A stretch of DNA of 64,000 bases, taken from NCBI GenBank assembly GCA_026413865.1, contig JAOAKB010000005.1, forward strand, positions 803 to 64,802, read 5' to 3'. The notes below the pieces were generated by a model. That model made no database searches and was not told where the DNA came from. It saw only the letters and a program-made list of their open reading frames with translations. Made by a program: the position numbers and the translations under genes. Below are positions 35,337-51,500 of this stretch, in pieces; positions within the stretch are counted from its first letter, which is position 1; every line of letters starts with the position of its first letter. This stretch comes from Nitrososphaeria archaeon (GTDB lineage: Archaea; Thermoproteota; Nitrososphaeria; JACIWG01).

Positions 35337-36515
35337 CTAGGTAACTATTTGAGGAAGCTTTCCTTTTACTGAAGCATAATATATTTCTAGCATAGAAAAG
35401 TCTAGAACAGACTCGAAAGCATGCAATCCTATTCCAAGCTGCTTTAGCATGCTAAAATATTTTAGATACAGTCTTCTCATTTCAGGAGAAGTGGGTCCAA
35501 CACATGGTGAGCCAGGTATTCTTGGACTCACATCGAAGACAAAAAATTCTAGTTTCTTTCCTTCTGGGTCCCCTGGGTCATATGCTATTGCACCCTGTAG
35601 TGCAAATGGGCCTATTAGGCCTGGAGGATATTCTTCACAACATACCTTCAGAAACTTTTCAGCAGCCCTATAAACTAGAGGCTTCTGTGACTCTCTCATT
35701 GTTAAGCCATAATGTCCTATTTCCTCATTTTTTACCGGAACATCAAGTTCAAGCTGTTCTCTTGCTGTAAGATTCAGTATTCCTGAAAGATTAACCTGCC
35801 TTCTATCATCGAAGCCTAGAAAATCAAATTCATCAAAAACATCATTTAAAGCCCATGCGTGAAAGTTTGCATTATATCTTGGCCCAAGAACAAACTCTTC
35901 TATAACCGCATTTTTTAAATCTTCTAAACTTATAACATTCTTCTTAGCCAAATCTTCAGCCTTACTCCAATATTCTTCAGCATTCTTTGCTGTAAAGAAT
36001 GCACGTTCTAAAGGTTTAGCCTTTTGAGCGACCTTTACAATAACGAGCCTATCAATCTTTTCCGGAGAATCAAACCTCTTAGGCGTCCTAACACCAGCCT
36101 TCTCAAGAAGCCAGTACTGGTTTCTTTCAAGCTTTCTTTCTTCAGTCTTTAGCATAAACCTGTTCCCATACATTGGAACCAAAAACTTTTCTTCAAGATT
36201 CTTGTAGCCAACATATACTGTTAAGGAACGGTTTGGTAAAAATATCGTATTAAGGTTCCTAAGCTTTTCCTGCACACTTTCATCAACTATATTAGAAAAC
36301 TTTTCTAAAACTATAGCATGATCAAACAAGTGCCTATTATATAATGTATACAATTCTTCCCTACCCTTTTCACATACCACAACAGTTTTGAATCCAAAGG
36401 CTTTTGCGGCTGAACCAACTTCTTCAGCCGAATGTGAACCAATAACTCCTATGGTAACATTTTTTTGATCATATTTTTGAACAACTTCTTTAACTTCTTT
36501 TTTGGAAACGGGCAT
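35337..36515 (-). CDS. purP: 5-formaminoimidazole-4-carboxamide ribonucleotide (FAICAR) synthetase PurP
   Basis: 392 aa. N-terminal IGVIGSHSAEEV and an ATP-grasp layout typical of archaeal PurP. Confidence 0.8.
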   Translation of the reverse strand: MPVSKKEVKEVVQKYDQKNVTIGVIGSHSAEEVGSAAKAFGFKTVVVCEKGREELYTLYNRHLFDHAIVLEKFSNIVDESVQEKLRNLNTIFLPNRSLTVYVGYKNLEEKFLVPMYGNRFMLKTEERKLERNQYWLLEKAGVRTPKRFDSPEKIDRLVIVKVAQKAKPLERAFFTAKNAEEYWSKAEDLAKKNVISLEDLKNAVIEEFVLGPRYNANFHAWALNDVFDEFDFLGFDDRRQVNLSGILNLTAREQLELDVPVKNEEIGHYGLTMRESQKPLVYRAAEKFLKVCCEEYPPGLIGPFALQGAIAYDPGDPEGKKLEFFVFDVSPRIPGSPCVGPTSPEMRRLYLKYFSMLKQLGIGLHAFESVLDFSMLEIYYASVKGKLPQIVT

Positions 36516-36631: not shown

Positions 36632-37672
36632 TTGATGCAAAATTTAGAAAACAAAAAAATTTTATCACATCTATTAATTACAATTATGTTGTCCTTAATA
36701 ATATTAAATTCACCCACCTTCGCACTATATAATATAATATCACCACAGGCTACAATAACTCTTCCTACCACAATCTTTCCAACAGTAACATTCACATTTC
36801 TTCCAACCTATAGTCTATCTGTTACACCATCAAATGTTACCATAGATCAGGGTGAACAACTTCCAGTTACTGTTACAGTAGGCTCCTATTTTGGATACAA
36901 TAAGACAATATCACTCTATTCTTCAAATGTTCCACCTGGTTTCACAATCAACTTTGCCCTAAACAAACTTACTCCACCAGTAAACGGTAACATAAGTACA
37001 ACAGCATTTATTTCAGTCTCAAAAACTGTTGTAGCTGGAAAATATAAAATGTTCATTAATGCAACAGATGGGTCTATAAAGAGGGGTGTAGAAATTAATG
37101 TGAAAGTGGTTCAAATTACAACCACCCCTCCTACAACAACTCCAACCACCTCTCCTACATCTACTTCACCTACAACGACATCCACTACTCCAACCACCAC
37201 TTCTCCGACAACCACATCACCAACTCCTACTACAACACCTACAACTACATCGCCCACAACTTCAACTACTACACCATCTACCCCCTCTCCAACTACTTCA
37301 CCAACAACAGTCACCACCTCCCAGCCAACTACTACAACATCTGCTGTTTCATCTGGTGGAATAGACACCACAACAATCGTAATTATAGCAATAATACTAA
37401 TAGCAGTATTTGCTGCAATAGCATTCTTTCTTTTAAGAAAGAAGCCTCCACCACCTCCTCCTCCGGCAAAGAGATATTGTATGCACTGTGGAAGCGGCAT
37501 GCCTGATGATGCAGTATCCTGTCCAAAGTGTGGAAAACAGCCTGCAGGCGGCCCAGACACTAAAGTATGTCCAAACTGTGGTTCAGTAATAAACATAGTC
37601 GCATCATTCTGTCCAAAATGTGGTGCAGCACAGCCTAAGGTGGGAGAGAAAGGTGGGTCAACCAGCAGCTAA
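36632..37672 (+). CDS. Type-I-like membrane protein: signal peptide, Ig-like ectodomain, Thr/Pro stalk, TM helix, poly-Pro, cytoplasmic double zinc ribbon
   Basis: N-terminal hydrophobic segment, TM helix TTIVIIAIILIAVFAAIAFFLL, then RKKPPPPPPPAKR, then CMHCG..CPKCG and CPNCG..CPKCG. Confidence 0.6.
   Translation: MMQNLENKKILSHLLITIMLSLIILNSPTFALYNIISPQATITLPTTIFPTVTFTFLPTYSLSVTPSNVTIDQGEQLPVTVTVGSYFGYNKTISLYSSNVPPGFTINFALNKLTPPVNGNISTTAFISVSKTVVAGKYKMFINATDGSIKRGVEINVKVVQITTTPPTTTPTTSPTSTSPTTTSTTPTTTSPTTTSPTPTTTPTTTSPTTSTTTPSTPSPTTSPTTVTTSQPTTTTSAVSSGGIDTTTIVIIAIILIAVFAAIAFFLLRKKPPPPPPPAKRYCMHCGSGMPDDAVSCPKCGKQPAGGPDTKVCPNCGSVINIVASFCPKCGAAQPKVGEKGGSTSS
37114..37342 (+). repeat. Thr/Pro-rich low-complexity coding repeat (TTSPTTT-like units)
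   Basis: Directly visible ACN/CCN-rich repeats encoding TTTPPTTTPTTSPTSTSPTTTSTTPTTTSPTTTSPTPTTTPTTTSPTTS... Confidence 0.85.
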
Positions 37673-38162
37673 ACAAGGTGACAAAATAGTAGCCCAAGAC
37701 ATTCATATTGTCATGGTACCCTCCCCAACTGGACTTGTTCCAACACCTACCCCTCTACCATTTAATGGCATAATAGACGGTAACTTGAGTAATGATGTGT
37801 TTATAGAGGGGAAGCCTGCTGCAACCGTCGGAAGCACTGCAACAAACACTCCACCACATACTCCAGTTGGTGGTGTATCATTTCAGGTTCCTCCAAAAAA
37901 TAGGGGTACAATTCTTGTTGGAAGTATGGGTGTTTTTATAAACGGTAAACCTGCTGCAAGAAACGGTGACACTGCAATAACATGCAATGATCCAGTCGAT
38001 CTTCCTGTAGGCAAGGTTGTCGCTGTTGGAAAGGTTTTTATTGGAGACATGGGTGTTCCAATACCTAAACCTACTACACCTGAAGAAGGGAAGGAGAAAG
38101 GGCTTGAAAAGCCTAAGGTTGAGGACTATAGACTTTTAACCCGTCCTAGAATTGAGGCTTAG
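37653..38162 (+). CDS. PAAR-domain protein (spike-tip cone)
   Basis: Three PAAR-type repeats: GQPAAKQGD, GKPAATVGS, GKPAARNGD. GTG at 37653 is preceded by GGAGAGAAAGG. Overlaps the upstream gene by 20 nt (53 nt if the 37620 start is used). Confidence 0.75.
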   Translation: MGQPAAKQGDKIVAQDIHIVMVPSPTGLVPTPTPLPFNGIIDGNLSNDVFIEGKPAATVGSTATNTPPHTPVGGVSFQVPPKNRGTILVGSMGVFINGKPAARNGDTAITCNDPVDLPVGKVVAVGKVFIGDMGVPIPKPTTPEEGKEKGLEKPKVEDYRLLTRPRIEA

Positions 38163-39619
38163 AGGAACTCAAGCTTCTTATAAACAAAATTTCTTCTATC
38201 CTTAACATATCTTATGAATATTCCATAATGTCTGCTTAGGTTCGATGAAAGGACTAGTTTTGGAAACTCAATGTTTCCAGGACATACTTCATCTTCTTCT
38301 GAAGCTTGTATCATTCCTCCTTCTGCTGGCTGATACCATAAAATACCATTTTTGTCTTGGAAAAGATGATGAGTTAAACCCTCTTCGTCTAAAATCACAT
38401 CTATACACTTTAGCTCACGCTCCTTTGGAACTGGTACAAAAATATTTTTCACTTCAACTTTTCTAATAACGTCTAGAATGTGTGCGTTCAACCTATCTTT
38501 TTCTAATGTTAGATAGTGTAGAGCTAAAATTCTTTCTCCACTTTCATCTATGCAATTGTTTGAAAGCTGGAGTGCAAAACATTGGTTTTCGTTCTTGAAT
38601 AGTGTCTGTTTTGTAACCTCTTCTAGGTTTTCGCCAGAAATTTCAATATAATAGCATTCATTGCATCCTTTTATAGTGTAAACTAGGTGTGCATGTGTTT
38701 TTTCATCGAAGACAAGATTATATTCGTCCAATATTCCTTTGAATGTTTCTAGAGGTTTTGTTTGAAAATTGGCATCTTCTCCTATTTTAATCAAGTATAT
38801 TGTTGACAAGTTGTCTGTAAAGCTGTATGCTAAAGATATCAAAACTCCGTCTTCACAAAAATATGGTGGTTCAAATATACAATTTACTTGAAAAGGCAGT
38901 TCAAAACTGTTCAGGGAAAATTTTTCATCTTCGACAACACATTTGAAGAAAACATTTTTTTCATACCAAACTATACAATTTTTTCTCTGGTCATAGTTTT
39001 CAGGTAATGCAGCATATACGTCATAAGGTTTGTCTAATCTTGTTACACGCTTATTATACCATATGTTTTTTGGAAAGTTTGGACTATTTTTCATAAAATA
39101 TAAGAAATGTTCATTGTTTTGTTTACTTATCCAAGCACTATATATTGGATCATAAGCATATCTCAAGTAGTCTCTTGGTGATGAAATGTATATCGGGTTT
39201 GATGATATAATCTTTATCTGCACAATTTCTGAATTTATAAAAAGTATTTCATGTGATGTATATGTAGCCCTTATCTTATAAAGGTCTTCAGCCAATTCGC
39301 CACAAATTTTTGTCAAATCCAAATTCAAGCATTTTTTACTATTTGGAGATAATTTGAAAGTTTTTGGTTTATAGGGTTTCAAAATTATACCTTCACGTGA
39401 AAGCCAGTTTCGTAGTGGAAATGATCTTTTAAAGCCTGTTTTTCCTAAAACTTTAAAGTTAAGGGAAGCTGATAGTGGTGTCAGTTCATCAAGCAATAAA
39501 TTTTTGTTGCCAATATTCTCTAAGCATACCGTAACTGGAATGGATTCTCCTCTAACGAATTTTCTTCTACTAAATTTCAAATGTAGTTTTAGATTTTCTT
39601 TTAGGCTCAAAAATGTCAC
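38159..39619 (-). CDS. Hypothetical protein, last gene of the contractile-tail operon
   Basis: 486-aa ORF, 3 nt after the upstream gene. No recognisable motif. N-terminal ~110 aa look beta-sandwich-like. Confidence 0.5.
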   Translation of the reverse strand: MTFLSLKENLKLHLKFSRRKFVRGESIPVTVCLENIGNKNLLLDELTPLSASLNFKVLGKTGFKRSFPLRNWLSREGIILKPYKPKTFKLSPNSKKCLNLDLTKICGELAEDLYKIRATYTSHEILFINSEIVQIKIISSNPIYISSPRDYLRYAYDPIYSAWISKQNNEHFLYFMKNSPNFPKNIWYNKRVTRLDKPYDVYAALPENYDQRKNCIVWYEKNVFFKCVVEDEKFSLNSFELPFQVNCIFEPPYFCEDGVLISLAYSFTDNLSTIYLIKIGEDANFQTKPLETFKGILDEYNLVFDEKTHAHLVYTIKGCNECYYIEISGENLEEVTKQTLFKNENQCFALQLSNNCIDESGERILALHYLTLEKDRLNAHILDVIRKVEVKNIFVPVPKERELKCIDVILDEEGLTHHLFQDKNGILWYQPAEGGMIQASEEDEVCPGNIEFPKLVLSSNLSRHYGIFIRYVKDRRNFVYKKLEFL

Positions 39620-39622
39620 ATC

Positions 39623-41746
39623 CTACTGTGTCTCAAAAACGAGTGGTGCACTTTCTATGAAATTATTTGGTCCTCGGCTAATTCTGTACTTTACTTCTGT
39701 CCTCCCTCTACCTACAATTTTTATCTTTGCAATCCAAATTTTATTTTCTTTTCTAACCCTTATTCTTCCAACTTTTGTGTTTGTTGAAATCCAACTTCCT
39801 CTCTCATATTTTGTTAAATCCTTTTTGTAGTCTATATTATCATCGTTTACAACTTCCTCAGAAGGATATAGTGCCAATAGCCTAAGTTCTTCTCCTACAA
39901 TTAGAGATTCAGGCGGGTTTTGATGAATTTTTAGCCAAGGTTCTATCACACTCCACCCATCTTGGTCGACTGTTTCTTTATCGGAATCCTCAACCCAGTA
40001 AACAGTCGGCGTCCTATGATATAATATTGTTCTCAGAGTGTTATCTTCTCCTCTTATCATTCTGTTTCTATCATAAAGTCTTAGTGTTAGTAGGCATAGT
40101 CCGCAAAAGTGCCATTCAACATTATTTATATTATATGACATTACACATGTTATCATATCATCGCTATCATGGTCGTCCCAGTATGGTCCTTCTGAACCAC
40201 TTTCCTCGCATCTTGTTGTGAATGGTATGTCAGTGTTTTTAACAAAATATGTTGCCCCATGTCTTAAGAAGAGTGCGTGTCCAAACTCGTGTACAAATGT
40301 TGACTCCATGTTTAATCCAGATACAATGTAGAACATTTTGTTGAAGAAACTTAGTCCTCCAACACTTGAGTCTTGAAATGGAGGCTTGCATATTAGTGTA
40401 CATACACCAATATCTATTCCTCTAAGCGGGTTTCTTAAACGATTATAAGTTTGTCCACCTAATTTTTCTCTGAAGACTCTTTTCGCCATTTTCTCTAAAA
40501 ACGTCCACGAGTCTCTGTTTAGATTTTGGGGGTCTTCATCTGGCGGTGTTAATTTTTGTGATCCTGGTATCGTTGGATGCGCTTGTGGAAAGGAGTAGTT
40601 TCTTAAGTCTTGAGTTTGCTCATTAACGTAATTGGGTTTCGAATATTCTTTCCATTCACTTTTGCGCCATCCTCTATACACTTCTTCTCCTAAATATCTC
40701 ATCCATTCTTCTCTTGTTATTGTGTACCTTTTTTCTGGTGGTGGTTCCTCAACTTCTATAAAAGCGTCTGCGAAGGCTGACTTTACAACCTTCCATTTCA
40801 TGTCCTCATAGTTTATTCCCTCTTGTAGGGCTACCATTTCTATCTTAATCTTCTTCCATACTGTTATTGTAGGGGTTTGAAAGTATAATGGGTATAGGTC
40901 TGGATTGTCTTTGTCCCTTAAAACAGCCTCTTGTCCGTTTCTGTTGATAAGCCTTATTTTAAGTCTATAATTGTTTCCAGCAACTGGTGGGAAATGTAGT
41001 AAGATTCTAGCATATCCTATTCTTATAATATTGTTTGAACCTTCAATCTTTTCCTCAACTTTTCTTATTGGCACTATGACTGCGTTAGGGTTTTCAGTAT
41101 ATACTCTAAATTGTCTTTTACTTTCATCCAATATTATTTTTTGTGGATTGTCCACATTACCTTGAACGCTTCTACATCTGTCTTGGAATTGTATTGGAGC
41201 AAATATGTTTGGACAGTTGTCTCCTCCATCTCCTCCTGAAACCTGGCTTTTAAGGAATGATACAAAGTCTGCTCCACATCTTCCATGCCCTTTTGGACCC
41301 TTTATTGTGCCAATGTTTTCTGGTGGATCAACTAGTTCTATTATTGCTGAAACTTCGTCTGCAACATAGTTTTCTGGATTGTCTGCAGCCATTTTTGAAA
41401 TTTCAATCTTTACTGGTATGTAAATGTCTATTTTTCCCATTATACCCCATATTCTATAAAATTGGCATTTGTCAACCACATATGATCCATTGTCTCCCAC
41501 ATTCTCTGAAATACATATTCTAAATTCGTCTGAAGATTCTAGGAGGTCAACTTCTTCCCTAATTGGAGTGTATACAGTTCTTTCAGTTTCAGTATCAACG
41601 TCTGATGCCTTTTCTATTGTATAGTTTGCATTCTGAGCTGGTGGTTGAACCTTTAAAGAAACAGTATATGAAACCTCACGTTGTAGTGTTCCTTCTAATA
41701 TGTTTGTTTTAACGTCAACTAAACCGTATGCTGTTACATCACTCAT
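39623..41746 (-). CDS. Large protein with metzincin-like zinc-protease signature
   Basis: 707 aa. HEFGHALFLRH (H-E-x-x-H-x5-H, third His at metzincin spacing) followed ~40 aa later by CVMSYN (serralysin/astacin-type Met-turn S-x-M-S-Y). Confidence 0.6.
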   Translation of the reverse strand: MSDVTAYGLVDVKTNILEGTLQREVSYTVSLKVQPPAQNANYTIEKASDVDTETERTVYTPIREEVDLLESSDEFRICISENVGDNGSYVVDKCQFYRIWGIMGKIDIYIPVKIEISKMAADNPENYVADEVSAIIELVDPPENIGTIKGPKGHGRCGADFVSFLKSQVSGGDGGDNCPNIFAPIQFQDRCRSVQGNVDNPQKIILDESKRQFRVYTENPNAVIVPIRKVEEKIEGSNNIIRIGYARILLHFPPVAGNNYRLKIRLINRNGQEAVLRDKDNPDLYPLYFQTPTITVWKKIKIEMVALQEGINYEDMKWKVVKSAFADAFIEVEEPPPEKRYTITREEWMRYLGEEVYRGWRKSEWKEYSKPNYVNEQTQDLRNYSFPQAHPTIPGSQKLTPPDEDPQNLNRDSWTFLEKMAKRVFREKLGGQTYNRLRNPLRGIDIGVCTLICKPPFQDSSVGGLSFFNKMFYIVSGLNMESTFVHEFGHALFLRHGATYFVKNTDIPFTTRCEESGSEGPYWDDHDSDDMITCVMSYNINNVEWHFCGLCLLTLRLYDRNRMIRGEDNTLRTILYHRTPTVYWVEDSDKETVDQDGWSVIEPWLKIHQNPPESLIVGEELRLLALYPSEEVVNDDNIDYKKDLTKYERGSWISTNTKVGRIRVRKENKIWIAKIKIVGRGRTEVKYRISRGPNNFIESAPLVFETQ

Positions 41747-42243
41747 GATTGTTCTTCCTTTAACTTGTATCCTTTGATTTTTAGTTTGAACCTGCCTTTT
41801 GGCACTCCCTTAAATTTTGCACATCCTTGTGTGAATGTTCCCTTTTCTTTGCTTCCATCAGAAAATTCTATCTCAAATTCTACATTATTCAATGGTGTAC
41901 CGTTTTCATCTTTTACATATATTTCTAGTGGGTATATGAATGTCCATGGTTCTGACTGTGCTTCTAGGTCTCCAACTTTTGCCCTAAAATAGTACTCTTC
42001 TAATTCGCCCTCTTCTTCTACTATCTCTTCCTTTTTTAACGTGTCTCTTTTTTCAGTTGCTCTTGGTGTCCATAGTGCCTCACCTTTTCCACCTCTTACT
42101 GTACCATTTACTTGGTCCACTATCTTTTCCTCACTGCCCTTTTTCATCCAGATCTCGAACTGCACTAGTCTTCCGTCTTCGAATCCTCTTGTGTCTACAC
42201 GTAGTTTTATTGGGCCTAGTGGTATCTTGTTTCTTTGGCTCAA
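41743..42243 (-). CDS. Hypothetical protein (beta-rich)
   Basis: 166-aa ORF with 4-nt overlaps at both ends, suggesting translational coupling within the operon. Confidence 0.45.
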   Translation of the reverse strand: MSQRNKIPLGPIKLRVDTRGFEDGRLVQFEIWMKKGSEEKIVDQVNGTVRGGKGEALWTPRATEKRDTLKKEEIVEEEGELEEYYFRAKVGDLEAQSEPWTFIYPLEIYVKDENGTPLNNVEFEIEFSDGSKEKGTFTQGCAKFKGVPKGRFKLKIKGYKLKEEQS

Positions 42244-42908
42244 ACTTTTCTTTGCTCCCTAATCTCTATCCTCTCTATTGGTGGAACTATCCTTGTAATC
42301 TTTAACTCGGTTTCAGCATTGCATGATATTATTGCCTGGTTTTCTTCGACCATTTTCCCATATAATGGCTTGAATGTTGTCCCTATTTCTTCGAAACTTT
42401 TTTCTGATTGGTATAAGATTTTTATCACATTTTCTATTAGATTGTCTAGTTGTTGTCTATCCTTTGATGTTATAATAATATGATATTTTGCCTCTATCTT
42501 GAGCCTATTAACTTCAACCTTCTTTGTTTTCGTATTATATCTTATTATAATGTTTTTGTTTCCTTTAGAAGGCTGTACCCTAAACAATATTGTTTTTCTC
42601 TCATAGTCTACATTATAGTCTTGTAGTTCCTCTAACCTTTTTCCTGCTGGATGTTCGACTGAAACAATGTTTGAAGGTGTCTCTTTTAAAACATAATCTT
42701 TTCTTTCTCCGTCTCCATCAAATTCTTCTGTTACAAGTTCACCTTCCTCTTCCACTATGTTCGATTTATCTATTTTGAACGCTACATTTTTTAATAATAT
42801 TGAAGGTTTTATGTCTATCTTGAATCCTATCCTAATGTTTTCTTCAGCAACCTCTTTAACCTCTTTTCTTAATATTTTGAGAACCTTTTCCTCAAGCTCA
42901 TAGAGCAT
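42240..42908 (-). CDS. Hypothetical protein
   Basis: 222-aa ORF within the operon. No recognisable motif. Confidence 0.45.
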   Translation of the reverse strand: MLYELEEKVLKILRKEVKEVAEENIRIGFKIDIKPSILLKNVAFKIDKSNIVEEEGELVTEEFDGDGERKDYVLKETPSNIVSVEHPAGKRLEELQDYNVDYERKTILFRVQPSKGNKNIIIRYNTKTKKVEVNRLKIEAKYHIIITSKDRQQLDNLIENVIKILYQSEKSFEEIGTTFKPLYGKMVEENQAIISCNAETELKITRIVPPIERIEIREQRKV

Positions 42909-42918
42909 TAGGTTTACC

Positions 42919-43566
42919 TCATATTGGACCTATTTTTGACTTGTAATGTATAACATTCCCTATTTTAAGTATACAGTTTGGTTCGCTCTTTCTAAATGAT
43001 ATATTGAACACTTCCTTTTCAGGATGAGGATTTTTTAACCTATACCTGTACCAGACTCTCTCGTTTGGTGAGAGAAGATATTCTAGGTACGGGTTTTCTG
43101 AACTTTTAGGCCTAAGTCTTGAACATTCGTTTATAAATAGGCCGCTTACTACGCTTGATGTTCCATCAAGGTACTCGAACACTATATCCAGTGCCTTCTT
43201 GTCGCCGTCTTCTGCTCCAGCCCAATATTCCAGTATTTCAAGATATGCTGCTAGCCCGAATCTGCATAGTTCTCCAACCTTTCCCCTCTCTGTCGCCCAC
43301 TGTCTTGTTATTGGTCCAACCACTGTTGCATTGTAGCTTGCTGTTTCTCCTGGTACTGGAACATTTAGTTCGTAACTTGTTCCAACCGGGCTTGCTGGGT
43401 TTAGGATTGTAGCGCTTTCTGTTAGGCTTTCAACATACTTTCTAAGTTCTATAACGCTTTTCTCTATCTCTTCTAAATCTTTTAGGATATCCTCTTGTAT
43501 TCTGTTCCAGTCTTCAGCTTTTATAAGTTCGCCAGGCTTTTTTGTTATGGGCTTAAATTTTGGCAC
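42919..43566 (-). CDS. Hypothetical protein, tail-fibre/receptor-binding candidate
   Basis: Sits in the slot occupied by fibre genes in Mu/P2/PBSX tails. The N-terminal LIKAEDWNRIQEDI plus coiled-coil resembles N-termini of phage fibre proteins. Recognition is weak. Confidence 0.35.
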   Translation of the reverse strand: MPKFKPITKKPGELIKAEDWNRIQEDILKDLEEIEKSVIELRKYVESLTESATILNPASPVGTSYELNVPVPGETASYNATVVGPITRQWATERGKVGELCRFGLAAYLEILEYWAGAEDGDKKALDIVFEYLDGTSSVVSGLFINECSRLRPKSSENPYLEYLLSPNERVWYRYRLKNPHPEKEVFNISFRKSEPNCILKIGNVIHYKSKIGPI

Positions 43567-44457
43567 CTAGTCCACCTCCACAATAATCTTTACTCCAGCG
43601 GCCTTAATTGCATCTAATACTTCTTTCACATATTCCTTTGTATACTTGCTTCTATTTAAAGCCTCTCTTCCTATTTTTACTGCTATTGTTGCAGGCTGTA
43701 ATCTTGTCCACTTGAATCTAACTGTAGCCTTTGGTGTACTTACAGCAAATATGCTTTCATCAAAGTAGCTTGAATCGAACACACCTATCCTTTCTCTTAT
43801 AAGCTCAGAATATTTCCATGTTGAAGCTTTTCTATGCAAGAATATTGTTTTGGTCTCCATCTTATCATTTGCCTCAACATCATTTATGTAGCATTTACCG
43901 TTTTTTATTACTATCTTGTCTCCTTTTTCGAAAACCCCTTTAAGGTTTACGTATGTGTTAAAGTCTAGGTTTGATATTGAAGGGTTTTCTATCCTGTCCG
44001 ATGCATCAATTTCTAATGTTGGTGTAGTCTTTTCTTCTATACTGTAGCTTCCAAGTGTCCACGTGTCCCCTGACATAACACTTACTTCATATGATGAGTC
44101 GGCTGGAGGGTTTTCTATAATTTGGATACCCTCTCCTACAATACTCTTTAGTATTGAGTGTATAGAATGTAGAGTTCCTCCTCCGGTAAAGTCTACTATT
44201 GCCCTAACTATTCTACTCCTATACCTCTCATCCTCTTCTCCTTCTAATCTTTTTAGTCCAAATATTGATCCCATTAGGTCTAGGTCTCCATCTGATGCTG
44301 TTTCTATCCAGTGTGAAAGCATCATATTGTATGCTAGCTCTTTTGTGTAATCGAGTTCTGTTCCAATTGCTTTAACAAGTTTAAAGATTATTGAAGACTT
44401 TATCCAGTATTTGTAAAAGTCTGGTAGGCGGGAGAATATTTTGTCCGCGCTAGACAA
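43567..44457 (-). CDS. Baseplate protein, gpI / Mu gp48 (DUF2313)-like
   Basis: Position directly after the Baseplate-J gene, with RLPDFYKYW near the N-terminus. TTG at 44457 is 1 nt after the J stop, with AGGAGG 11-16 nt upstream. This is preferred over the GTG at 44517. Confidence 0.5.
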   Translation of the reverse strand: MSSADKIFSRLPDFYKYWIKSSIIFKLVKAIGTELDYTKELAYNMMLSHWIETASDGDLDLMGSIFGLKRLEGEEDERYRSRIVRAIVDFTGGGTLHSIHSILKSIVGEGIQIIENPPADSSYEVSVMSGDTWTLGSYSIEEKTTPTLEIDASDRIENPSISNLDFNTYVNLKGVFEKGDKIVIKNGKCYINDVEANDKMETKTIFLHRKASTWKYSELIRERIGVFDSSYFDESIFAVSTPKATVRFKWTRLQPATIAVKIGREALNRSKYTKEYVKEVLDAIKAAGVKIIVEVD

Positions 44458-44458
44458 T

Positions 44459-46021
44459 CTATTCCATCCTCCTATACGAGATTCTAATGTTCCTTGCCAG
44501 AACCTTTTCCTCGTCACTTACCACAATATTTTCTTTTTCACTTCTAACTACACCTTCTGCTACTCTATGTGCTTCTATAACAAGTTCTGCTATATCTCTT
44601 ACGCCTTCCACTTCTAATGCGAGGGCTGCAGCCTTATAGAATAGTACATCTTCACCTATCTTTAGACTGGAAAGGTAGCTTCTGATTTGCTCTTCAACTT
44701 TTCTTGAAACCTCTGCTTCCGACGCCTTCTTTTCTAAAACTAGTGTTATGTCCACATCAATGTAGACTGGTTTTGGTCTCGAAAATTCAACTTTTATGCC
44801 CGCAGCTCTTGTCCTTTCTATTGCCTCAATAATTTTTTCAGGGTCTCCTCCGTCCACTATAACCTTTATTATTCCTGGAACATTGTCTACAGTCTCCTTC
44901 ACTAGCACAGAGCTTACTCCCTCAACTGACTTTATTGTTGTTTCAAGTGATGGTAGTGTTGCTTTTCCAGCTATTTCGAGTGCACGTTTTGCTCTATCTC
45001 TGAGTTCTCTATCGCTTTCTGCGTCAACTCCTCCTGTTATGTCAACCTTGTTTATCACATATTCTATTCCTACAAGTGGTTGTGGTAATACTGTTATTGA
45101 CCCTGCTAGAACGTTTCCCCTTGGTCCTGGAATTGTGCAGACTATTGGGACATCTGCTTCCCAGTTTTCCTCTGCTGTAGGCTTTAGTATGGAATCTTCT
45201 ACTGTAGTATATGTTATGACCTCCTCTGGTTTTGCAGAATATGTTGATACTCTTGTCCCCTTTGGAATGGGAATTTCACGGTATGCTATATAGTCTACAG
45301 TGAATGTTGTTCCTTGGTCAGGCCTTTTTCCTGTAGGAAGCCATCTTATCCTATTTTCTGAAATAATATAATCAACTTCGCTTCTAAACTCTGCTGCTAT
45401 ACCATTTGCTAGTCCCTTCACTTTTGAAACTTCTTTTACAAACCTGTTCCTTAAAGTATATTCTATTGAACCATCATAGAATATTATTTCTCCATTAACC
45501 TGTATTGTTTCTGGTTCACTTCTTCTACCGAATGTTACGTATCCTGAAGCTGGTTGTGGCGGTTTTCTTCTTATACCAAGTATTGCTACCACAAGGTCAA
45601 GTGCTTCACCTGACGCAGTATCTATAAATCCTGAATAATATGCCCGCTCTATTAGAAGGTTAAGATACTCTATTTCTCTTCCTACCGCCTCTAATATTGT
45701 TCTAACAACACTTCCTGGAGAAGTGTCCGTTATCTCAGCCCTTTCAGGCTTATATGTTACATTAAATTTTGTTCCATCATCGGGTCTACTGCCTCCATAA
45801 ATCCATTCAATATAATTTTCAGAAAACCTGTAGTCCAAATCTTTTACAAAAGTCTTCTTTAAGCCGTTAACAAAACCTTCTACTGATATTATATCCAAAA
45901 CCTTTCCAGACAATATGTATCTTACAACATTTTTTGAGTAAACGAATTCCTCTGACGCTTCGCTCAACATTCTAAGCATTTCTCCAACAATCTGCTGGAA
46001 AGTTTTCTTTTCAATTGGCAC
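44459..46021 (-). CDS. Baseplate J-like (T4 gp6 / P2 gpJ family) wedge protein
   Basis: 520 aa. SPGSVVRTILEAVGREIEYL motif typical of the Baseplate_J family. Abuts the gp25-like gene. Confidence 0.75.
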   Translation of the reverse strand: MPIEKKTFQQIVGEMLRMLSEASEEFVYSKNVVRYILSGKVLDIISVEGFVNGLKKTFVKDLDYRFSENYIEWIYGGSRPDDGTKFNVTYKPERAEITDTSPGSVVRTILEAVGREIEYLNLLIERAYYSGFIDTASGEALDLVVAILGIRRKPPQPASGYVTFGRRSEPETIQVNGEIIFYDGSIEYTLRNRFVKEVSKVKGLANGIAAEFRSEVDYIISENRIRWLPTGKRPDQGTTFTVDYIAYREIPIPKGTRVSTYSAKPEEVITYTTVEDSILKPTAEENWEADVPIVCTIPGPRGNVLAGSITVLPQPLVGIEYVINKVDITGGVDAESDRELRDRAKRALEIAGKATLPSLETTIKSVEGVSSVLVKETVDNVPGIIKVIVDGGDPEKIIEAIERTRAAGIKVEFSRPKPVYIDVDITLVLEKKASEAEVSRKVEEQIRSYLSSLKIGEDVLFYKAAALALEVEGVRDIAELVIEAHRVAEGVVRSEKENIVVSDEEKVLARNIRISYRRME

Positions 46022-46429
46022 TTAAACCACCTCCAATAGCATTGAATAAAATACTGTTAAGGGTCTTCTCTTTCCAACTGGTATAACAACAATCTCAATA
46101 TCGATCCTGTTTGGGTCTAAAATGTTGGGTGAAACTGTAACGCTTACAATTTCTTTGATTCTAGGCTCTCCAGATAGTGCATTAAGTACATATGTTCTTG
46201 CAAGGTTTCTTGTTTCTTCAGTGTTAGGTTGCCCTATTAGGTCATATAATTTTGAGCCATAGTCAGGGTGTCCTAGTTCCTCTAATTCGCCAAGGTCTGT
46301 CATTAGCCTGTGCACTATTGCCTGGGCAAGATTTTCTTCCTCCTGTGCAAGTTGTAGATCTCCATCTTTTACTTGTAGGTCTGCGCCTGCTTCATCAAAC
46401 TTTAATTTTAGGTCTGATTTTAATGACAT
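46022..46429 (-). CDS. gp25/GPW-like baseplate wedge (sheath-initiator) protein
   Basis: 135 aa. ...AIVHRLMTDLGE...GHPDYGSKLYDLIG...GEPRIKEI pattern of the GPW_gp25 family. Confidence 0.75.
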   Translation of the reverse strand: MSLKSDLKLKFDEAGADLQVKDGDLQLAQEEENLAQAIVHRLMTDLGELEELGHPDYGSKLYDLIGQPNTEETRNLARTYVLNALSGEPRIKEIVSVTVSPNILDPNRIDIEIVVIPVGKRRPLTVFYSMLLEVV

Positions 46430-46438
46430 GCTGTCACC

Positions 46439-47158
46439 CTAGTTTATGTTCACTGTTGCACCCTTTATTGTAGTCCTGCCACTTGCTTCCATGTTCATGT
46501 CAGCTGAAGATGTTAGCTTTAGGTTTGCGTCCGTGTTTATCTTCAAATCCGCTCCAGCATTGACCTCAAGCTCCTTTTCACTTTCGACCTTTATCTTTGA
46601 AGCTGAAAGTGATAGTGTTCCTCCTGAAGAGATTTTTGTGTTGCCTTTGGCTTTTACTACAACGTCTGCCTTCGACTCTATCACAACATCTCCATCTTTG
46701 TGCACTATAACCTTTGTTTCTCCTGTCTTAACCATAATATCTTCGTCCGTAATTTTTATCATTGTTCCCTCTGGAAACTCTAAATATATTCTTCTTTTCT
46801 CTGCATTTTTTGTGTAGGGTGGTACAAATACTATCTCTTCTAAATCGTTTACTGGAGGTCTATCTTCGTCATTGTATAGTCTTCCTATTATGACTGGTAG
46901 GTTTATGTCTCCGTTAACAAACGATACTAGGACTAGGTCTCCCACTCTCGGGGGGCATGCTAGACCTATTACCTGTGTTGCAATTTGAACGTGCTGAAGC
47001 TCTATTTCTCCACCCTTAATCTTGACATTACATTCATAGTTTTCTTTATCGTTCGGTGTACTATGTGGGAATACTGATGTTACGACACCCAATTCTATAG
47101 TATAATTTTTTTTAGCCTCGTTTTCAGCGATTTTTCTTATAAGCTCCACTATGCTCAT
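46439..47158 (-). CDS. Central spike (gpV / gp5 OB-fold + C-terminal beta-helix; VgrG-like)
   Basis: LGVVTSV...RVGDLVLVSFVNGDINLPVIIGRLYN OB-fold motif, then repetitive beta-helix VVIESKADVVVKAKGNTKISSGGTLSLSASKIKVESEKELEVNAGADLKINTDANLKLTS. Confidence 0.8.
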   Translation of the reverse strand: MSIVELIRKIAENEAKKNYTIELGVVTSVFPHSTPNDKENYECNVKIKGGEIELQHVQIATQVIGLACPPRVGDLVLVSFVNGDINLPVIIGRLYNDEDRPPVNDLEEIVFVPPYTKNAEKRRIYLEFPEGTMIKITDEDIMVKTGETKVIVHKDGDVVIESKADVVVKAKGNTKISSGGTLSLSASKIKVESEKELEVNAGADLKINTDANLKLTSSADMNMEASGRTTIKGATVNIN

Positions 47159-47159
47159 A

Positions 47160-48161
47160 CTATTTCACTTCTATTCCTCCTATTAGTGTAGTGAATCCTT
47201 CCCTAAAGTTTAGGTGGTGTTCTACTTCAACAACCTCAAACTCTATAGGCTCTTGAGTTTCTGGAATGTTTTCGACCTTTACTGTGTCACTAACTTTAAT
47301 CTTAGGTTCTCCCAGTGTCCTCAAAAATGTCATGAAATCTATCTTTCTTCTAGAATATATGTTTTCTGCTACTGTTGTAACTGTATCCGTGTCCTTTATT
47401 GTATAGTCCTTTAAAATTAGTTCATGAGCTCCTTTTCCTGTAGATGTTCCGGAATAATCTTTTTTTGAAAGCCAATGAAATGTTTCTCTTCCAGCCCAGC
47501 TTGATGGGCTTTCTCCATAAACTGTTATGCCACCAATCGGATTAAACAATTTAATCAAACTTACTTCTATAATGTTTTCTCCATATTTAAGTGTATAAGG
47601 TTCTTTTCTCTCATATGCTTTAAAGTTTAGTAGTCCTTCTGATGTTGTATAGCATATGTAATTGCATTTTTCCGCTAGCCTTGCTATGTGCTCGTATGCA
47701 TTCATGTTTTCTCCTATAACATAGTATGGGAACATTATCCCATCCATTATTTTCTCATGTTTTAGGGTCTCCTCTCCTTTTTCAGTCAGCCTCTTATTTA
47801 ATGTGTCCAATATATCTGAAACAATGTTTCCCGCTGTCTGGTTAAGGTAAACCCTATTCAATCTCAATATTGTTAGGTGTAGTGCATGGTTTAGTGCGTA
47901 TACTCTTGTCTGTCTAAAACTTTTTTCTATTAGGTCAACTATTCCAGAAAATACTGTCTGTAGGCTGTCCTCGTATCCTATCTTAACAAGAACTTTTTCC
48001 CCCCTCTGCACCTTCTCTGTCTCCTCATCTCTTGTTAGTGTTAATTCTAGTGTGTCAACTTTTGGACATAGTCCACACTTTACTCTTATGCCAAAAACTT
48101 TTGTTGAAGATGGTGTAAACGTTTTCGAACCAAATGTTATCTCATAGTTTGGGTAATACAA
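47160..48161 (-). CDS. Baseplate hub, late-control-gene-D / gp27-like
   Basis: 333 aa. N-terminal pattern (i.i.g..f......sl.V......vDtLeLtL...GekVlVkiGY...lqtVFsGiVd) typical of gpD/Mu gp44. Position directly upstream of the spike. Confidence 0.65.
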   Translation of the reverse strand: MYYPNYEITFGSKTFTPSSTKVFGIRVKCGLCPKVDTLELTLTRDEETEKVQRGEKVLVKIGYEDSLQTVFSGIVDLIEKSFRQTRVYALNHALHLTILRLNRVYLNQTAGNIVSDILDTLNKRLTEKGEETLKHEKIMDGIMFPYYVIGENMNAYEHIARLAEKCNYICYTTSEGLLNFKAYERKEPYTLKYGENIIEVSLIKLFNPIGGITVYGESPSSWAGRETFHWLSKKDYSGTSTGKGAHELILKDYTIKDTDTVTTVAENIYSRRKIDFMTFLRTLGEPKIKVSDTVKVENIPETQEPIEFEVVEVEHHLNFREGFTTLIGGIEVK

Positions 48162-48163
48162 TA

Positions 48164-48661
48164 TTATTTCACCTGCCTTAAAATGTCATAGACTTCTTTA
48201 ATTATAGACTCTGTCTCCTCTTTTGCAGCTTCTTCTTGGCTTGGTGCCGGCTTCTCCTCCTGTTTTGTGCTCTTATGCTCTTTTAGGACTAGAATATAAC
48301 AGTAGCTTGTGGGAGAGTAGCTTACTATTGTTGCCCTAAAACTTTCTATCACAACCTCTGAAATTTCTGTTATAGATGGTATGTCTGAAACAAACTGTAC
48401 TGGTTTGCCGAGCTTAAATTTAGAGTTAAGGTCTTGGAATGTGTTCTTTGAATTTGGTCCAGTTAAGAGTCCTTCAACTATAATCGTTATAGGATATCTT
48501 CCGAAGTCTTGGAATACGCTTCCATCATGTCCTGGTATCTTTATTTCATAAACTTGTCTTCTGTTCGATAGGGTAACATTTATTATGCTTCTTGTCTCTA
48601 ATATTGTTCCCTCCTGGTCTACTCTTTTAACGAGTTCGAGGTCATCTAATTTTATATTCAA
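48164..48661 (-). CDS. Hypothetical baseplate/tube-adaptor protein (Mu gp43 / XkdP slot)
   Basis: 165 aa, between the tape-measure candidate and the hub. Assignment is by position only. Confidence 0.35.
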   Translation of the reverse strand: MNIKLDDLELVKRVDQEGTILETRSIINVTLSNRRQVYEIKIPGHDGSVFQDFGRYPITIIVEGLLTGPNSKNTFQDLNSKFKLGKPVQFVSDIPSITEISEVVIESFRATIVSYSPTSYCYILVLKEHKSTKQEEKPAPSQEEAAKEETESIIKEVYDILRQVK

Positions 48662-48673
48662 AATATTTCACCT

Positions 48674-50506
48674 TCAAAATATTGGGCCATAATATCTTCT
48701 AAACTGTTCTCTCAAAATCTGTGTAATCTTTCTTTCAAGCTCCCATAGGTCTAATTCTGCACCCTCTGGCACTGTTATATTGAAAATGTTCTGTATCTCG
48801 TGTTCCATTAGACTTTGGCTTGGGTGCGTGGGCTGTATTGTGTAAGGTTGTCTTATGGTTGGGGATAATGTTTCACGTCTTGCTTCTTCTTCAGCTATTC
48901 TGAATATTCTTGATGTTTCTAGAAACTGTGATACTGTTGTCATCATTGGAGAAGGCTCTGCTGGTCTCACAACTTTTACATCATATAATAGCCTGTCATA
49001 TAATTGTATTAGGTTTTGGAGAATGTTTTTTGATATTGTTGATAGTGGATAGTATGCCTCTAAACCAAAATATTTTATGGCTTCTGTCTCTTGAGCTAAT
49101 GCTGGAAATGTTTCCAGAATGTTCAAGACTTTTGTGTAAACAGCTTTTCTTGTAAAGTCCTCGAACTTTAATATATCATGTGCTGGTGGATACACTGTAC
49201 TTGTTTGCGTGTAGACTTTTCCTATTATACTGTGAGGGCTTAAGCCAGTAGAAGATAATATTATTGTGTATGGTCTCACTATTGCTTTATGAGTGTAGAA
49301 TATACTTAAGGTGTCTAAGCTAGTATATGGCAATGTCTGTGAATATACTGTAGTTGAAAGTCTATGAGTATAGAATGGATATTCTTTGGCTAAAAGGTGT
49401 ATGTAGTGTGTTAGTGGCGTGGATGTAAAAGCTGATTTTATGGTTTCAATACCTCTATCCTTTTCTATGTTGACTAAAGCTGTTGGTTCGAGTAAAGCTT
49501 GCTTTATAGTGTCTGAAAAAGTTTTTGAAAGTATTTCTTGAAGTTTGGGCACCTGTGTAGCTAATATGAAATAGGATAGAATGTATGGTATACTCAATAT
49601 GTTCTTGTACTCATGCAACGGATGTATTATTGTTTCTCTTATTGGTGATGGAATATTTTTTTCTAGTTCACCAAATTCTGTGAACGTTTTCTTGGCCAGT
49701 GATTGGATAAACCTATAGTCTACGCTTTCTAACTTTTCTCCAAATTCTATTAGTGGGCTGGAGATATAATATTTTGTGAACACTTCTTCTGGCATTATAA
49801 ATTGTTTTGGAATAATATATCTTGTCTCAGGCAATTGGCTGCCTAATTGTGTTAGGATGTTAACTAGACTGCTTATGTACTTAAATGGTTCCCCCAACTC
49901 CTGTCTTAATTCAAGTATCTTCTCTTCTCTAGTCTCATCATATACTTTAGCAGTCTCTATTTTAGATGTTATCGTTTCCTCTATGGGTTTTGTTTCACTA
50001 ATTCTCCTTGTTTCTGGAACAATTTTTTCCTCTAACTTTAACTCTTTCTTAATAGCCTTTTCTGGTGCAATATATCCTGTTCCTATAGTATATTGGCCTA
50101 CACTTTTTTCAGCCTGCATGATATACGATGTACTCTCTCCCACGATCTTGTATGCTTCACTCAAGCTTTCTGGCATTATAACATGTCTTATAAAATGCTC
50201 TGGTACTTTAGCCTGTCTACCTGCCACAATATTTCTTAACAGGTTTATTGTATAAGATATTCTTGGCTGAGCATATATTCTCTGTAATGGTTCAAAAAAT
50301 TCTTCTCTAACACCTTCTATGGGAGCTGAAATACTTGTTTGTGGTACAATTTTTCTTGGAACATAATATCTTGAAATATAACTATTAATATTAATAAAAA
50401 CCTTCATTAAATCTTTAAAAAATTTAGTGTATGATAAGATAATTTTTGATAGAGGCTCAAATAGTATATCCATTATCCTATTAAGGACCATATTAAATTG
50501 GCTCAA
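48674..50506 (-). CDS. Tape-measure protein candidate
   Basis: 610 aa, the second-largest gene in the operon after the 707-aa metzincin-signature protein (39623..41746), located after the chaperone genes as in tailed-phage modules. No sequence motif recognised. Confidence 0.45.
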   Translation of the reverse strand: MSQFNMVLNRIMDILFEPLSKIILSYTKFFKDLMKVFININSYISRYYVPRKIVPQTSISAPIEGVREEFFEPLQRIYAQPRISYTINLLRNIVAGRQAKVPEHFIRHVIMPESLSEAYKIVGESTSYIMQAEKSVGQYTIGTGYIAPEKAIKKELKLEEKIVPETRRISETKPIEETITSKIETAKVYDETREEKILELRQELGEPFKYISSLVNILTQLGSQLPETRYIIPKQFIMPEEVFTKYYISSPLIEFGEKLESVDYRFIQSLAKKTFTEFGELEKNIPSPIRETIIHPLHEYKNILSIPYILSYFILATQVPKLQEILSKTFSDTIKQALLEPTALVNIEKDRGIETIKSAFTSTPLTHYIHLLAKEYPFYTHRLSTTVYSQTLPYTSLDTLSIFYTHKAIVRPYTIILSSTGLSPHSIIGKVYTQTSTVYPPAHDILKFEDFTRKAVYTKVLNILETFPALAQETEAIKYFGLEAYYPLSTISKNILQNLIQLYDRLLYDVKVVRPAEPSPMMTTVSQFLETSRIFRIAEEEARRETLSPTIRQPYTIQPTHPSQSLMEHEIQNIFNITVPEGAELDLWELERKITQILREQFRRYYGPIF

Positions 50507-50509
50507 ACA

Positions 50510-50692
50510 CTATTCACCTTCCTCCTCAACCTTTATTCTCGTTATACCTTGTGCCGCAAGCCTCGACTGAGCCAATTGCTCAGCACGATATGCTAGGGCT
50601 GAAATCAAAAAAAGGATTTGGTCCCGAGTTAGGTCTCGGGGGCTATCCGCAAGCTTATAGCCACAGTCTAGGCAGAGTGTCGCCAACTCCAT
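50510..50692 (-). CDS. Small ORF, candidate frameshift extension of the tail assembly chaperone (gpT-like)
   Basis: 60-aa ORF. Its reading frame stays open upstream to 50755 and spans the A9 tract at the end of the preceding gene. Confidence 0.4.
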   Translation of the reverse strand: MELATLCLDCGYKLADSPRDLTRDQILFLISALAYRAEQLAQSRLAAQGITRIKVEEEGE

Positions 50693-50717
50693 TCCATCAG
50701 GGCTTCTGACAAAGTTT

Positions 50718-51089: not shown

Positions 51090-51090
51090 C

Positions 51091-51492: not shown

Positions 51493-51500
51493 CTACTCAT

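Follow-up and report, generated by a model that had tools for sequence, protein, structure and literature searches.

A stretch of 64,000 nucleotides (nt) from a Nitrososphaeria archaeon (GenBank assembly GCA_026413865.1, contig JAOAKB010000005.1), here called the window, carries the operon of a contractile injection system (CIS) and, on the opposite strand, two overlapping genes: one for a membrane protein of 346 amino acids (aa) with a C-terminal double zinc ribbon, and one for a PAAR spike-tip protein. The 346-aa protein belongs, as its minimal version, to a CIS-dedicated family of bitopic proteins that had no name and is called DZR-tail here. Proteins of this family are very probably a dedicated accessory component of the CIS, and the family is a strong candidate for the link between archaeal CISs and the cell membrane.

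The main evidence comes from a scan of GTDB species-representative genomes, in which loci with a strong match to the zinc-ribbon tail (E ≤ 1e-13; 37 loci) were compared with loci encoding a weakly matching, generic DZR (21 loci). The association with CISs was scored by searching the fetched flanks with the CIS proteins of the window. CIS genes were found beside 31 of the 37 DZR-tail loci and beside none of the 21 generic double-zinc-ribbon loci (0/21). The dedicated partnership put forward in the original prediction, which had been made from the sequence of the window alone, is thus upheld, as the family is concentrated at CIS loci rather than being widespread away from PAAR and tail genes. 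When 1.84 billion representatives were searched exhaustively by HMMER for the 68-aa tail, 192 matches were obtained at E ≤ 1e-10 and 2616 at E ≤ 1e-3. Double zinc ribbons on membrane proteins are therefore common in archaea and bacteria, and a few members of the family are orphans, as would be expected of an unrelated surface protein that merely neighbours a CIS locus. This explanation is effectively refuted by the contrast between 31/37 and 0/21, by the retention of the association across classes and gene orders, and by the tail itself, which is under strong purifying selection.

The zinc-ribbon protein and its PAAR neighbour

The domain layout that had been proposed for the 346-aa protein, namely a signal peptide, an immunoglobulin (Ig)-like ectodomain, a stalk, one transmembrane (TM) helix, a P7 tract and two zinc ribbons, is present according to Pfam, AlphaFold2 (AF2) and hydropathy (Table 1). 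Hydropathy maxima are located at residues 9-33 and 238-272, with a TM peak of 3.4 at residues 249-267. In the AF2 model, built from 11 orthologues, residues 58-160 form a beta-sandwich (predicted local distance difference test score, pLDDT, ~90-96), the stalk is disordered and residues 245-268 form a TM helix. Foldseek matches the sandwich to generic Ig/Fn3-like domains with E values of ~1e-6, including S-layer SbsC domains, and the ectodomain holds four N-x-S/T sequons. The stalk, which spans residues 164-243, is Thr/Pro-rich as predicted (43 Thr, 16 Pro and 15 Ser), with a measured length of 80 aa instead of ~75 aa. At the C-terminus, the Pfam families DZR (PF12773; 1.4e-9, 38.4 bits, cut-off 27.3) and Zn_Ribbon_1 (PF13240; 3e-12, 46.4 bits, cut-off 25) are recognized. 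The four CxxC motifs at residues 283, 297, 313 and 327 are predicted to bind zinc, and each ribbon reads CxxC-x10-CxxC, which corrects the x9 spacing given earlier. A sequence search of the PDB with the tail retrieved generic ribbons only, from PolD DP2 and ribosomal proteins, at E > 0.02.

The topology is most probably N-out/C-in, with the zinc-ribbon tail in the cytoplasm, because the TM helix is followed by RKK (positive-inside rule). The signal peptide, the sequons and the Thr/Pro stalk would accordingly lie on the outer side, and RKK and the Cys4 ribbons on the inner side. The presence of a signal peptide and a TM anchor also makes it unlikely that the protein is a PAAR-associated cargo, which had been suggested as an alternative to an anchoring role.

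The identification of the downstream gene as a PAAR gene is well supported by the PAAR_motif family of Pfam (PF05488; 2.1e-16, 60.4 bits, cut-off 27) and by phmmer, with which the product matches 4JIW, Tas1 and 4JIV. The core of the AF2 model, with a pLDDT of ~85-95, has the conical beta fold, and the best Foldseek matches are 4JIW (TM-target 0.78), 4JIV, 4KU0 and 6P1Z, with T4 gp5.4 included among the matches. H18, H69 and C111 do not vary among the aligned sequences, a pattern compatible with a metal-binding site. The model also contains a long predicted beta-hairpin at residues 11-43, for which the solved PAAR proteins of 93 aa are too short. In all 30 of the 30 aligned relatives, the N-terminus is MGQPAAK. 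Because all 30 begin in this way, the GTG at 37653 is the true start of the PAAR gene, and the overlap with the upstream gene, for which a range of 20-53 nt had been given, exists and amounts to 20 nt. The stop codon (38160-38162) overlaps the stop of the minus-strand gene for a 486-aa protein, and the pair thereby converges on the tail operon, as had been stated.

The PAAR protein of the window is encoded together with a gpV/VgrG spike and a contractile tail, but is displaced from its usual place in the order spike-PAAR-gp25. Matches to its core of ~130 aa (37653-38045) number more than 7900, and identity stays above 70% in both archaea and bacteria, including Chloroflexi, Dehalococcoidia, Altiarchaeales and Thermoanaerobaculia. 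This is either unusually strong conservation or recent horizontal spread. Because the core is so conserved, the PAAR protein by itself is not very informative.

The gene pair is also found in relatives whose PAAR proteins are 92, 75 and 67% identical to that of the window, and orthologues of the 346-aa protein are encoded upstream of PAAR at eight loci (L001, L004, L005 and L008-L012; L numbers denote individual loci). The conservation of the pair beside archaeal CIS loci, named earlier as a check, was found in these relatives and at many further loci. In public gene calls near the PAAR relatives, the DZR gene is present only in L004, and as a 48-aa fragment in L007. Direct reading of the open reading frames (ORFs) showed that a gene with a signal peptide, ectodomain, stalk, TM helix and DZR precedes PAAR in all these relatives, including L001-3 and L005-6. 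The apparent absence of the partner from L001-3 and L005-6 was therefore rejected, the gene being present but mis-called. Gene callers took Val/Gly-rich antisense ORFs inside the Thr/Pro stalk, located on the minus strand at 37111-37596 in the window, 5531-5974 in L001 and 5220-5849 in L005. Since callers choose these antisense ORFs, annotation-based surveys would miss the DZR-tail family.

Close orthologues share ~85-90% identity in the tail, which is nearly invariant, and ~45% in the ectodomain. The length of the stalk varies from ~10 to ~100 residues, the stalk being nearly absent in L005, and the Ig-like domain is duplicated in the orthologue P0124. A profile made from four orthologues detected 29 proteins in a word-indexed database, of which 11 are full-length orthologues and a second tier matches in the tail only.

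The DZR-tail family and its links to PAAR and the spike

At all 37 loci of the GTDB scan, the encoded protein starts with a signal or anchor sequence, continues with an ectodomain of 100-700 aa, a single TM helix and a cytoplasmic spacer, and has the ribbon pair at its extreme C-terminus. The tail consensus of these loci is [FL]xE.KR[YF]CMHCG..M......CP.CG..PPSGVD[TV]K.C..C..V[IL]P..A[KR][FY]C..CGA.QP, and the family was defined by the signature KR[YF]CMHCG...CP.CG..PP.G.D.K.C..C...CGA.QP. The tail of the window protein scores 100 bits against the tail profile, although the window sequence is itself one row of that alignment; independent evidence of membership is provided by its alignment with the tails of 37 other loci. 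The ectodomains differ wholly between members and include Ig-like domains, four PKD repeats, a PQQ propeller, SBP_bac_5 (L036), Big_1 and CarboxypepD_reg. In larger members, such as those of L013, L014 and L019 and others, Pfam recognizes a cytoplasmic Invasin_D3/Big_1-like Ig domain between the TM helix and the ribbon, and in the window protein the P7 tract stands in the place of this spacer. Among the best 150 matches of the HMMER search, ~90 have a single match at the very C-terminus, in proteins of 130-1400 aa. Judged from these searches, the family appears to comprise on the order of a hundred clusters at 50% identity.

Carriers of DZR-tail genes include 'Nitrososphaeria' metagenome-assembled genomes (MAGs), Methanomethylicia, many Bathyarchaeia, Methanomicrobiales, Methanoregula, Methanocella and Methanoperedens. 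Methanocella sp. MCL-LM (L033; NZ_CP187259.1) is a cultured carrier with a complete genome, in which two DZR-tail genes adjoin the CIS. No Halobacteria were found among the DZR-tail loci of the GTDB scan, and two bacterial bins are among the carriers. One of these, L022 in a bin assigned to Krumholzibacteriaceae, has a tail nearly identical to those of L026 and L029 from Bathyarchaeia and an identical CIS gene order, which points to mis-binning or a very recent transfer.

DZR-tail genes are located at the edges of CIS operons, mostly convergent on the baseplate end and sometimes by the sheath gene, and in L014 and L036, which lie on one contig, copies are present at both ends of the operon. 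Tandem arrays of two to four DZR-tail genes with different ectodomains have been found in L120 (1-6319), L090 (3963-7492), L014 (7754-11209) and L033 (6764-10180). The last gene of the array abuts PAAR in L014, L090 and L120, and in L033 PAAR stays within the operon.

The link to PAAR was followed in a second set of 86 PAAR-seeded loci from viral-contig and metagenome scans. The viral-contig scan contributed six loci, one of which (L067) has a DZR-tail gene. The canonical order spike-PAAR-gp25 is present in 66 of the 86 loci, and two of these 66 still have a DZR-tail gene at the operon edge. At the 20 loci with a non-canonical order, PAAR is directly downstream of a DZR-tail gene in 15; the other five are two truncated contigs, L106, L125 and L150. 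In L150 (1075-2313), the displaced PAAR gene is found beside a gene for a divergent bitopic protein of 257 aa, with a signal peptide, an ectodomain, a TM helix and a 16-aa tail that has no zinc ribbon. Pairing of DZR-tail with PAAR recurs in at least three archaeal lineages, which supports the pairing as originally proposed, but the association is broader and concerns the CIS locus as a whole rather than PAAR alone. A variation on the arrangement is found in L018 (1-2569), where the DZR-tail gene is followed by a gpV/VgrG-type spike gene, missing from its usual operon position, and by an ORF of 110 aa with a sub-threshold match to DUF4280 (PAAR-like). A search for DUF4280-type tips with the L018 ORF found no other copies.

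Counted from the stop codon of the DZR-tail gene, PAAR begins at -20, +3 or +5 to +14 nt. Spacings in the range of -20 to +14 nt were found in the window, L001-L012, L014, L039, L072-77, L081, L085, L089, L090, L101, L102, L120, L124 and L129, and the overlap of 20 nt is shared with the window by L001-4, L008, L009, L011, L012, L072-74 and L081. In L016, the two ORFs also overlap. Such distances are characteristic of genes whose translation is coupled. At the +3 nt loci (L005, L010 and L075-77), both ORFs are in one frame and are separated by the stop and one codon; in L005 (5110-6513), read-through would yield a fusion protein, an arrangement that is not conserved in other lineages. Together with the overlap of 20 nt in the window, this raises the question of whether programmed frameshifting or stop read-through could produce a single, membrane-anchored PAAR protein. 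Such a fusion is extremely unlikely and was rejected. The frame relation varies by lineage (-20, +3, +5, +10 to +14 nt), which rules out a conserved recoding event. In addition, PAAR always has its own start (ATG, GTG or TTG) at MGQPAAK, with a Shine-Dalgarno-like motif in the window, and no natural fusion is present among the >7900 PAAR homologues or in the DZR-tail family.

In some Bathyarchaeia, the paired PAAR proteins carry additional domains. The PAAR protein of L023 (935-2513) carries Peptidase_M91 and is followed by a candidate immunity ORF, with a DZR-tail gene adjacent. In L016 (10148-12034), a PAAR protein with an OmpA and a peptidoglycan-binding domain is encoded beside a DZR-tail gene, and this extension hints at bacterial targets. 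The occurrence of PAAR proteins with effector or p166-like domains (p166 is described below) in Bathyarchaeia suggests an outward-directed weapon.

Such neighbours, together with the coupled translation and the position of the gene directly upstream of PAAR, would also fit a PAAR-specific adaptor or chaperone, whose tail would hold PAAR or PAAR-effector fusions (Peptidase_M91 in L023, OmpA/PG_binding in L016) for loading onto the spike, the membrane location being incidental or serving sequestration only. The adaptor genes of type VI secretion systems (T6SSs), encoding DUF4123, DUF1795 and DUF2169 proteins, typically adjoin their PAAR or effector genes. However, known adaptors are soluble, many loci of the family have a canonical PAAR within the operon or no adjacent PAAR, and the hypervariable ectodomain and the tandem arrays would be left unexplained, so that this explanation is quite improbable.

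A role in self-protection, immunity or exit-site marking, in which the protein would guard the producer against its own or kin CIS or mark kin, is less probable still and can be considered very unlikely. Membrane proteins beside PAAR-toxin genes are often immunity proteins, and variable ectodomains could encode kin recognition. However, the PAAR protein of the window has no toxin domain, the gene precedes PAAR instead of following it, it is the cytoplasmic tail that is conserved and not the side facing attack, and L023 has its own candidate immunity ORF after the gene for the PAAR-M91 toxin.

The injection system of the window

The window is chromosomal archaeal DNA of ~36% GC, with genes for SMC, TFB, Trm1, Nop56/58, Elp3, GatD/E, PurP and pyruvate:ferredoxin oxidoreductase. 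Within it, the CIS forms a self-contained island bounded by the PurP and PfkB kinase genes. The CIS operon (38159-52850) is on the minus strand and its sheath, tube and baseplate core is complete, with the zinc-ribbon and PAAR genes on the plus strand. Pfam scans detected no capsid or terminase in the island. The canonical T6SS set of TssJLM, a TssBC sheath and ClpV is not present, and the sheath and baseplate are of the phage or extracellular CIS (eCIS) type (Phage_sheath_1, Baseplate_J and gp25). Compared with eCISs of the Afp/PVC-like type, the core genes are present, and the families of the DUF4255 cap (Afp16), the AAA+ ATPase (Afp15) and the tail fibres were not detected; the 215-, 222-, 486- and 707-aa proteins are without matches. 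Searches of the PDB, Pfam, NCBIfam and PHROGs with these four proteins, the 610-aa protein and the tube proteins returned nothing useful. The features of the pair and of the island are listed in Table 1.

Table 1. Coordinates of the gene pair, its protein domains and the CIS operon (window positions)
Feature	Position	Strand	Basis or remark
PurP gene	35337-36515		product identical to MCX8188594.1
Bitopic membrane protein gene, C-terminal double zinc ribbon, 346 aa	36632-37672	+	TTG start 36632; alternative ATG 36635
Signal peptide or signal anchor, residues 1-31 (KK, hydrophobic core, TFA/LY)	36632-36724	+	hydropathy; AF2 helix 4-25; cleavage predicted
Ig-like beta-sandwich ectodomain, residues 58-161, four conserved N-glycosylation sequons	36803-37114	+	AF2, Foldseek
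Thr/Pro/Ser stalk, 80 aa, disordered	37121-37360	+	composition; pLDDT <50; glycosylation predicted
Transmembrane helix, then RKK	37367-37441	+	hydropathy; AF2
P7 tract, residues 272-278	37445-37465	+	sequence
Double zinc ribbon, two CxxC-x10-CxxC units	37478-37621	+	Pfam; most conserved part of the protein
Shine-Dalgarno-like GGTGGGAG	37639-37646	+	6 nt before PAAR GTG, within upstream gene; putative function
Overlap of zinc-ribbon and PAAR genes, 20 nt	37653-37672	+	different frames
PAAR spike-tip gene, 169 aa	37653-38162	+	GTG start; core residues 1-131, disordered C-terminal tail ~37-38 aa
486-aa protein (p486), last tail-operon gene	38159-39619	-	convergent with PAAR; no family match; conserved beside PAAR in relatives
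707-aa protein (p707), candidate metalloprotease effector	39623-41746	-	HEFGH motif only; no family match; conserved in relatives
166-aa prealbumin/transthyretin-like protein (p166)	41743-42243	-	Pfam SpaA 2.9e-5
Two conserved CIS proteins, 222 and 215 aa	42240-43566	-	no family match; retained at almost every related CIS locus
Baseplate wedge genes: gpI/Mu gp48-like, Baseplate_J, gp25 sheath initiator	43567-46429	-	Pfam; PDB baseplate J matches
Spike (gpV/VgrG OB domain), gpD-like hub, DUF6046-like protein	46439-48661	-	Pfam
Spike gene	46439-47158	-	Pfam, gpV/VgrG type
610-aa protein in tape-measure position and two small putative tube proteins (123, 133 aa)	48674-51492	-	putative roles, from position and conservation across loci
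Contractile sheath	51501-52850	-	first operon gene; Pfam Phage_sheath_1 1.5e-16; PDB sheath matches

At the baseplate end of the operon, the genes for p486, p707 and p166 form a trio that is tandemly duplicated in L075-L077, where it resembles an effector or cargo cassette. By phmmer, p166 is homologous to a domain fused at the C-terminus of PAAR in Bathyarchaeia-type loci (L085, L089, L090, L101, L102, L118, L120, L124 and L129; P0008 and P0056). This homology suggests that p166 and the PAAR protein of the window are a split PAAR-transthyretin adaptor, and the disordered tail of PAAR looks like a remnant linker. Outside the island, the genes for a HepT-like RNase and a Pol-beta nucleotidyltransferase (MNT) overlap one another at 62218-63071 on the plus strand; this HepT/MNT toxin-antitoxin pair is unrelated to the CIS.

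Proposed role and comparison with known systems

Based on these data, the following role can be proposed. Outside the cell, a variable and probably glycosylated ectodomain would be carried on a stalk able to bridge the gap beneath the S-layer, giving envelope reach together with recognition or sensing. Inside, the conserved zinc-ribbon tail would be a protein-binding module in the compartment where the CIS assembles, and it would dock the CIS at the inner side of the membrane by way of the spike tip (PAAR) or the baseplate around it. The ectodomain would in this way mark the site where the machine is positioned and perhaps also triggered. The protein would then serve as a membrane adaptor or sensor-anchor, comparable in its action to CisA of Streptomyces or to the membrane anchor of a T6SS. 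In the lineage of the window, PAAR would have moved out of the spike-gp25 slot and become coupled to the adaptor gene by the 20-nt overlap and the internal Shine-Dalgarno-like motif. Because of this translational coupling, adaptor and PAAR would be made together, at the membrane. For such a docking or adaptor role of the tail, the sequence evidence leaves the chances about even, and direct binding of the tail to PAAR or the spike complex is a tentative and somewhat doubtful assignment.

A more far-reaching version, which is rather unlikely, is that DZR-tail proteins are surface receptors of the producer cell that replace tail fibres. Each hypervariable ectodomain would recognize a target or cue beyond the S-layer, in some genomes through tandem arrays of two to four such genes, and the tail would capture the PAAR-tipped spike and nucleate the assembly of a CIS just below the receptor. 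The machine would then fire outward across the membrane at the anchor of the receptor.

The main rival to docking is a membrane-tethered sensor or regulator, in which the ectodomain senses a cue and the tail acts on transcription, translation or a checkpoint of CIS assembly without anchoring the machine. Proteins of the TFB/TFIIB type and proteins that bind RNA polymerase contain zinc ribbons, the ectodomains include sensor-like domains (SBP_bac_5, PQQ propeller and PKD), and several paralogues per locus could mean several inputs. However, apart from the ribbons there is no DNA-binding domain, and translational coupling to a structural protein of which each particle has a single copy is more in keeping with co-assembly than with regulation. 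The recurrent neighbours are specifically spike-complex genes, and the cytoplasmic Ig-like spacer before the ribbon in larger members suggests structural reach. A regulatory role is therefore unlikely.

Several observations weigh against the docking role. Zinc ribbons can bind nucleic acids too, and those of the window protein are modelled poorly by AF2 (pLDDT 50-60). None of the TssJ/L/M and ClpV families was detected among the Pfam-scanned ORFs of the locus and its flanks, and the locus shows no further sign of a cell-anchored mode. The operon end also houses the variable, cargo-like genes for p486, p707 and p166, and the adjacency of DZR-tail genes could partly reflect a general accessory region. 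PAAR is located inside the operon in the DZR-tail loci L033, L042, L067 and L097, and elsewhere none is present in the fetched flank. Adjacency to PAAR is thus a property of a subset of the family loci, and the partner could be any clade-specific CIS protein. Among the orphans, L044 adjoins carB, in a MAG that has a CIS-linked copy (L032), and in L034, L037 and L043 CIS genes are absent from flanks of 2-6 kb.

The pairing of PAAR with a bitopic envelope protein was thought to be undescribed, and this holds for the literature searched. No link between a zinc ribbon and a CIS was found in it, and large surveys of eCISs and PAAR proteins and the description of the phage-like protein translocation structures (PLTS) of anaerobic methanotrophic archaea (ANME) are silent on such a gene. 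The family is not an oddity of one genome, and its association with CISs makes the question of how archaeal CISs meet the membrane directly testable, as it offers a widely conserved candidate with a simple sequence signature in Bathyarchaeia, methanogens, Methanoperedens and hot-spring Thermoproteota. Its logic is modular, being variable outside and invariant inside, with a genetic tie to the spike tip, and the family goes with a single clade of CIS loci. If the tail binds the spike or baseplate, this would explain the positioning of the CIS and possibly the choice of target, and it would provide a handle of ~55 aa for tethering or re-targeting engineered CISs. If DZR-tail proteins are receptors, 'outside-in' targeting and central anchoring at the spike tip would be new for contractile injection systems, and a widespread archaeal T6SS-like class would be present in Bathyarchaeia, methanogens and their relatives.

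Multiple systems that fix contractile machines to membranes, or that adjoin PAAR, have been described. The DUF4123, DUF1795/Eag and DUF2169 adaptors are likewise encoded directly beside PAAR and tied to the spike tip, but they are soluble chaperones without a signal peptide, ectodomain or zinc ribbon. TssJLM, the feet of T6SS subtype iv and the thylakoid-anchored CIS (PMC8894136) also fix a contractile machine to a membrane for firing from within the cell. These proteins are unrelated and form multi-subunit channels or peripheral baseplate extensions, whereas DZR-tail proteins are bitopic with a small tail. In Haloferax, FtsZ1 is held at the membrane by CdpC, a protein with a double zinc ribbon (bioRxiv 10.64898/2026.07.16.738847), and there too an archaeal zinc-ribbon module ties a cytoplasmic assembly to the membrane, as proposed for DZR-tail. 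CdpC, which is absent from Thermoproteota apart from one singleton (bioRxiv 10.64898/2026.07.16.738847), binds the membrane by an amphipathic helix and not a TM segment, its partner is FtsZ1, and the generic ribbon is the only shared trait considered.

In the haloarchaeal T6SS, the membrane link is unresolved and perhaps involves an unseen membrane protein, and a cage around the spike touches the membrane centrally (PMC11566945). This central contact is the geometry that a tether at the spike tip would give. Its putative anchor, Hbor_38620 (PMC11566945), resembles DZR-tail proteins in being an archaeal, conserved, CIS-cluster-associated membrane protein with a cytoplasmic domain. It differs in having six TM helices, a cytoplasmic domain of ~150 residues, no zinc ribbon and no large ectodomain, and it is found in one haloarchaeal clade only.

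The closest comparison is with CisA (SCO4242) of Streptomyces, a bitopic protein whose gene comes directly after those of the baseplate. The CIS does not fire without it, and Cis11 is its predicted binding partner; CisA is the sole bacterial adaptor of this kind studied so far (PMC12237407). CisA and the DZR-tail proteins are single-pass membrane proteins encoded at the baseplate end of the cluster, and both have an extracytoplasmic, sensor-like domain, which resembles a substrate-binding protein in CisA and includes SBP_bac_5 in the DZR-tail protein of L036. In both, the cytoplasmic part is proposed to contact the baseplate, and the host CIS is without recognized tail fibres and without the trans-envelope complex of T6SSs. 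CisA is N-in/C-out, whereas DZR-tail is N-out/C-in, and its cytoplasmic part is long and unstructured where that of DZR-tail is a zinc ribbon. Homologs of CisA have been reported only in Actinomycetes, at type IId eCIS loci, whereas the DZR-tail carriers compared here are archaeal, and no PAAR link has been reported for CisA. With its reversed topology, zinc ribbon and archaeal origin, the window protein falls outside the CisA family. By analogy, DZR-tail proteins may be functionally CisA-like but non-homologous, as they are set apart by the published architecture of CisA, and they would represent a CIS membrane adaptor of a new, non-homologous architecture in an apparently undescribed family.

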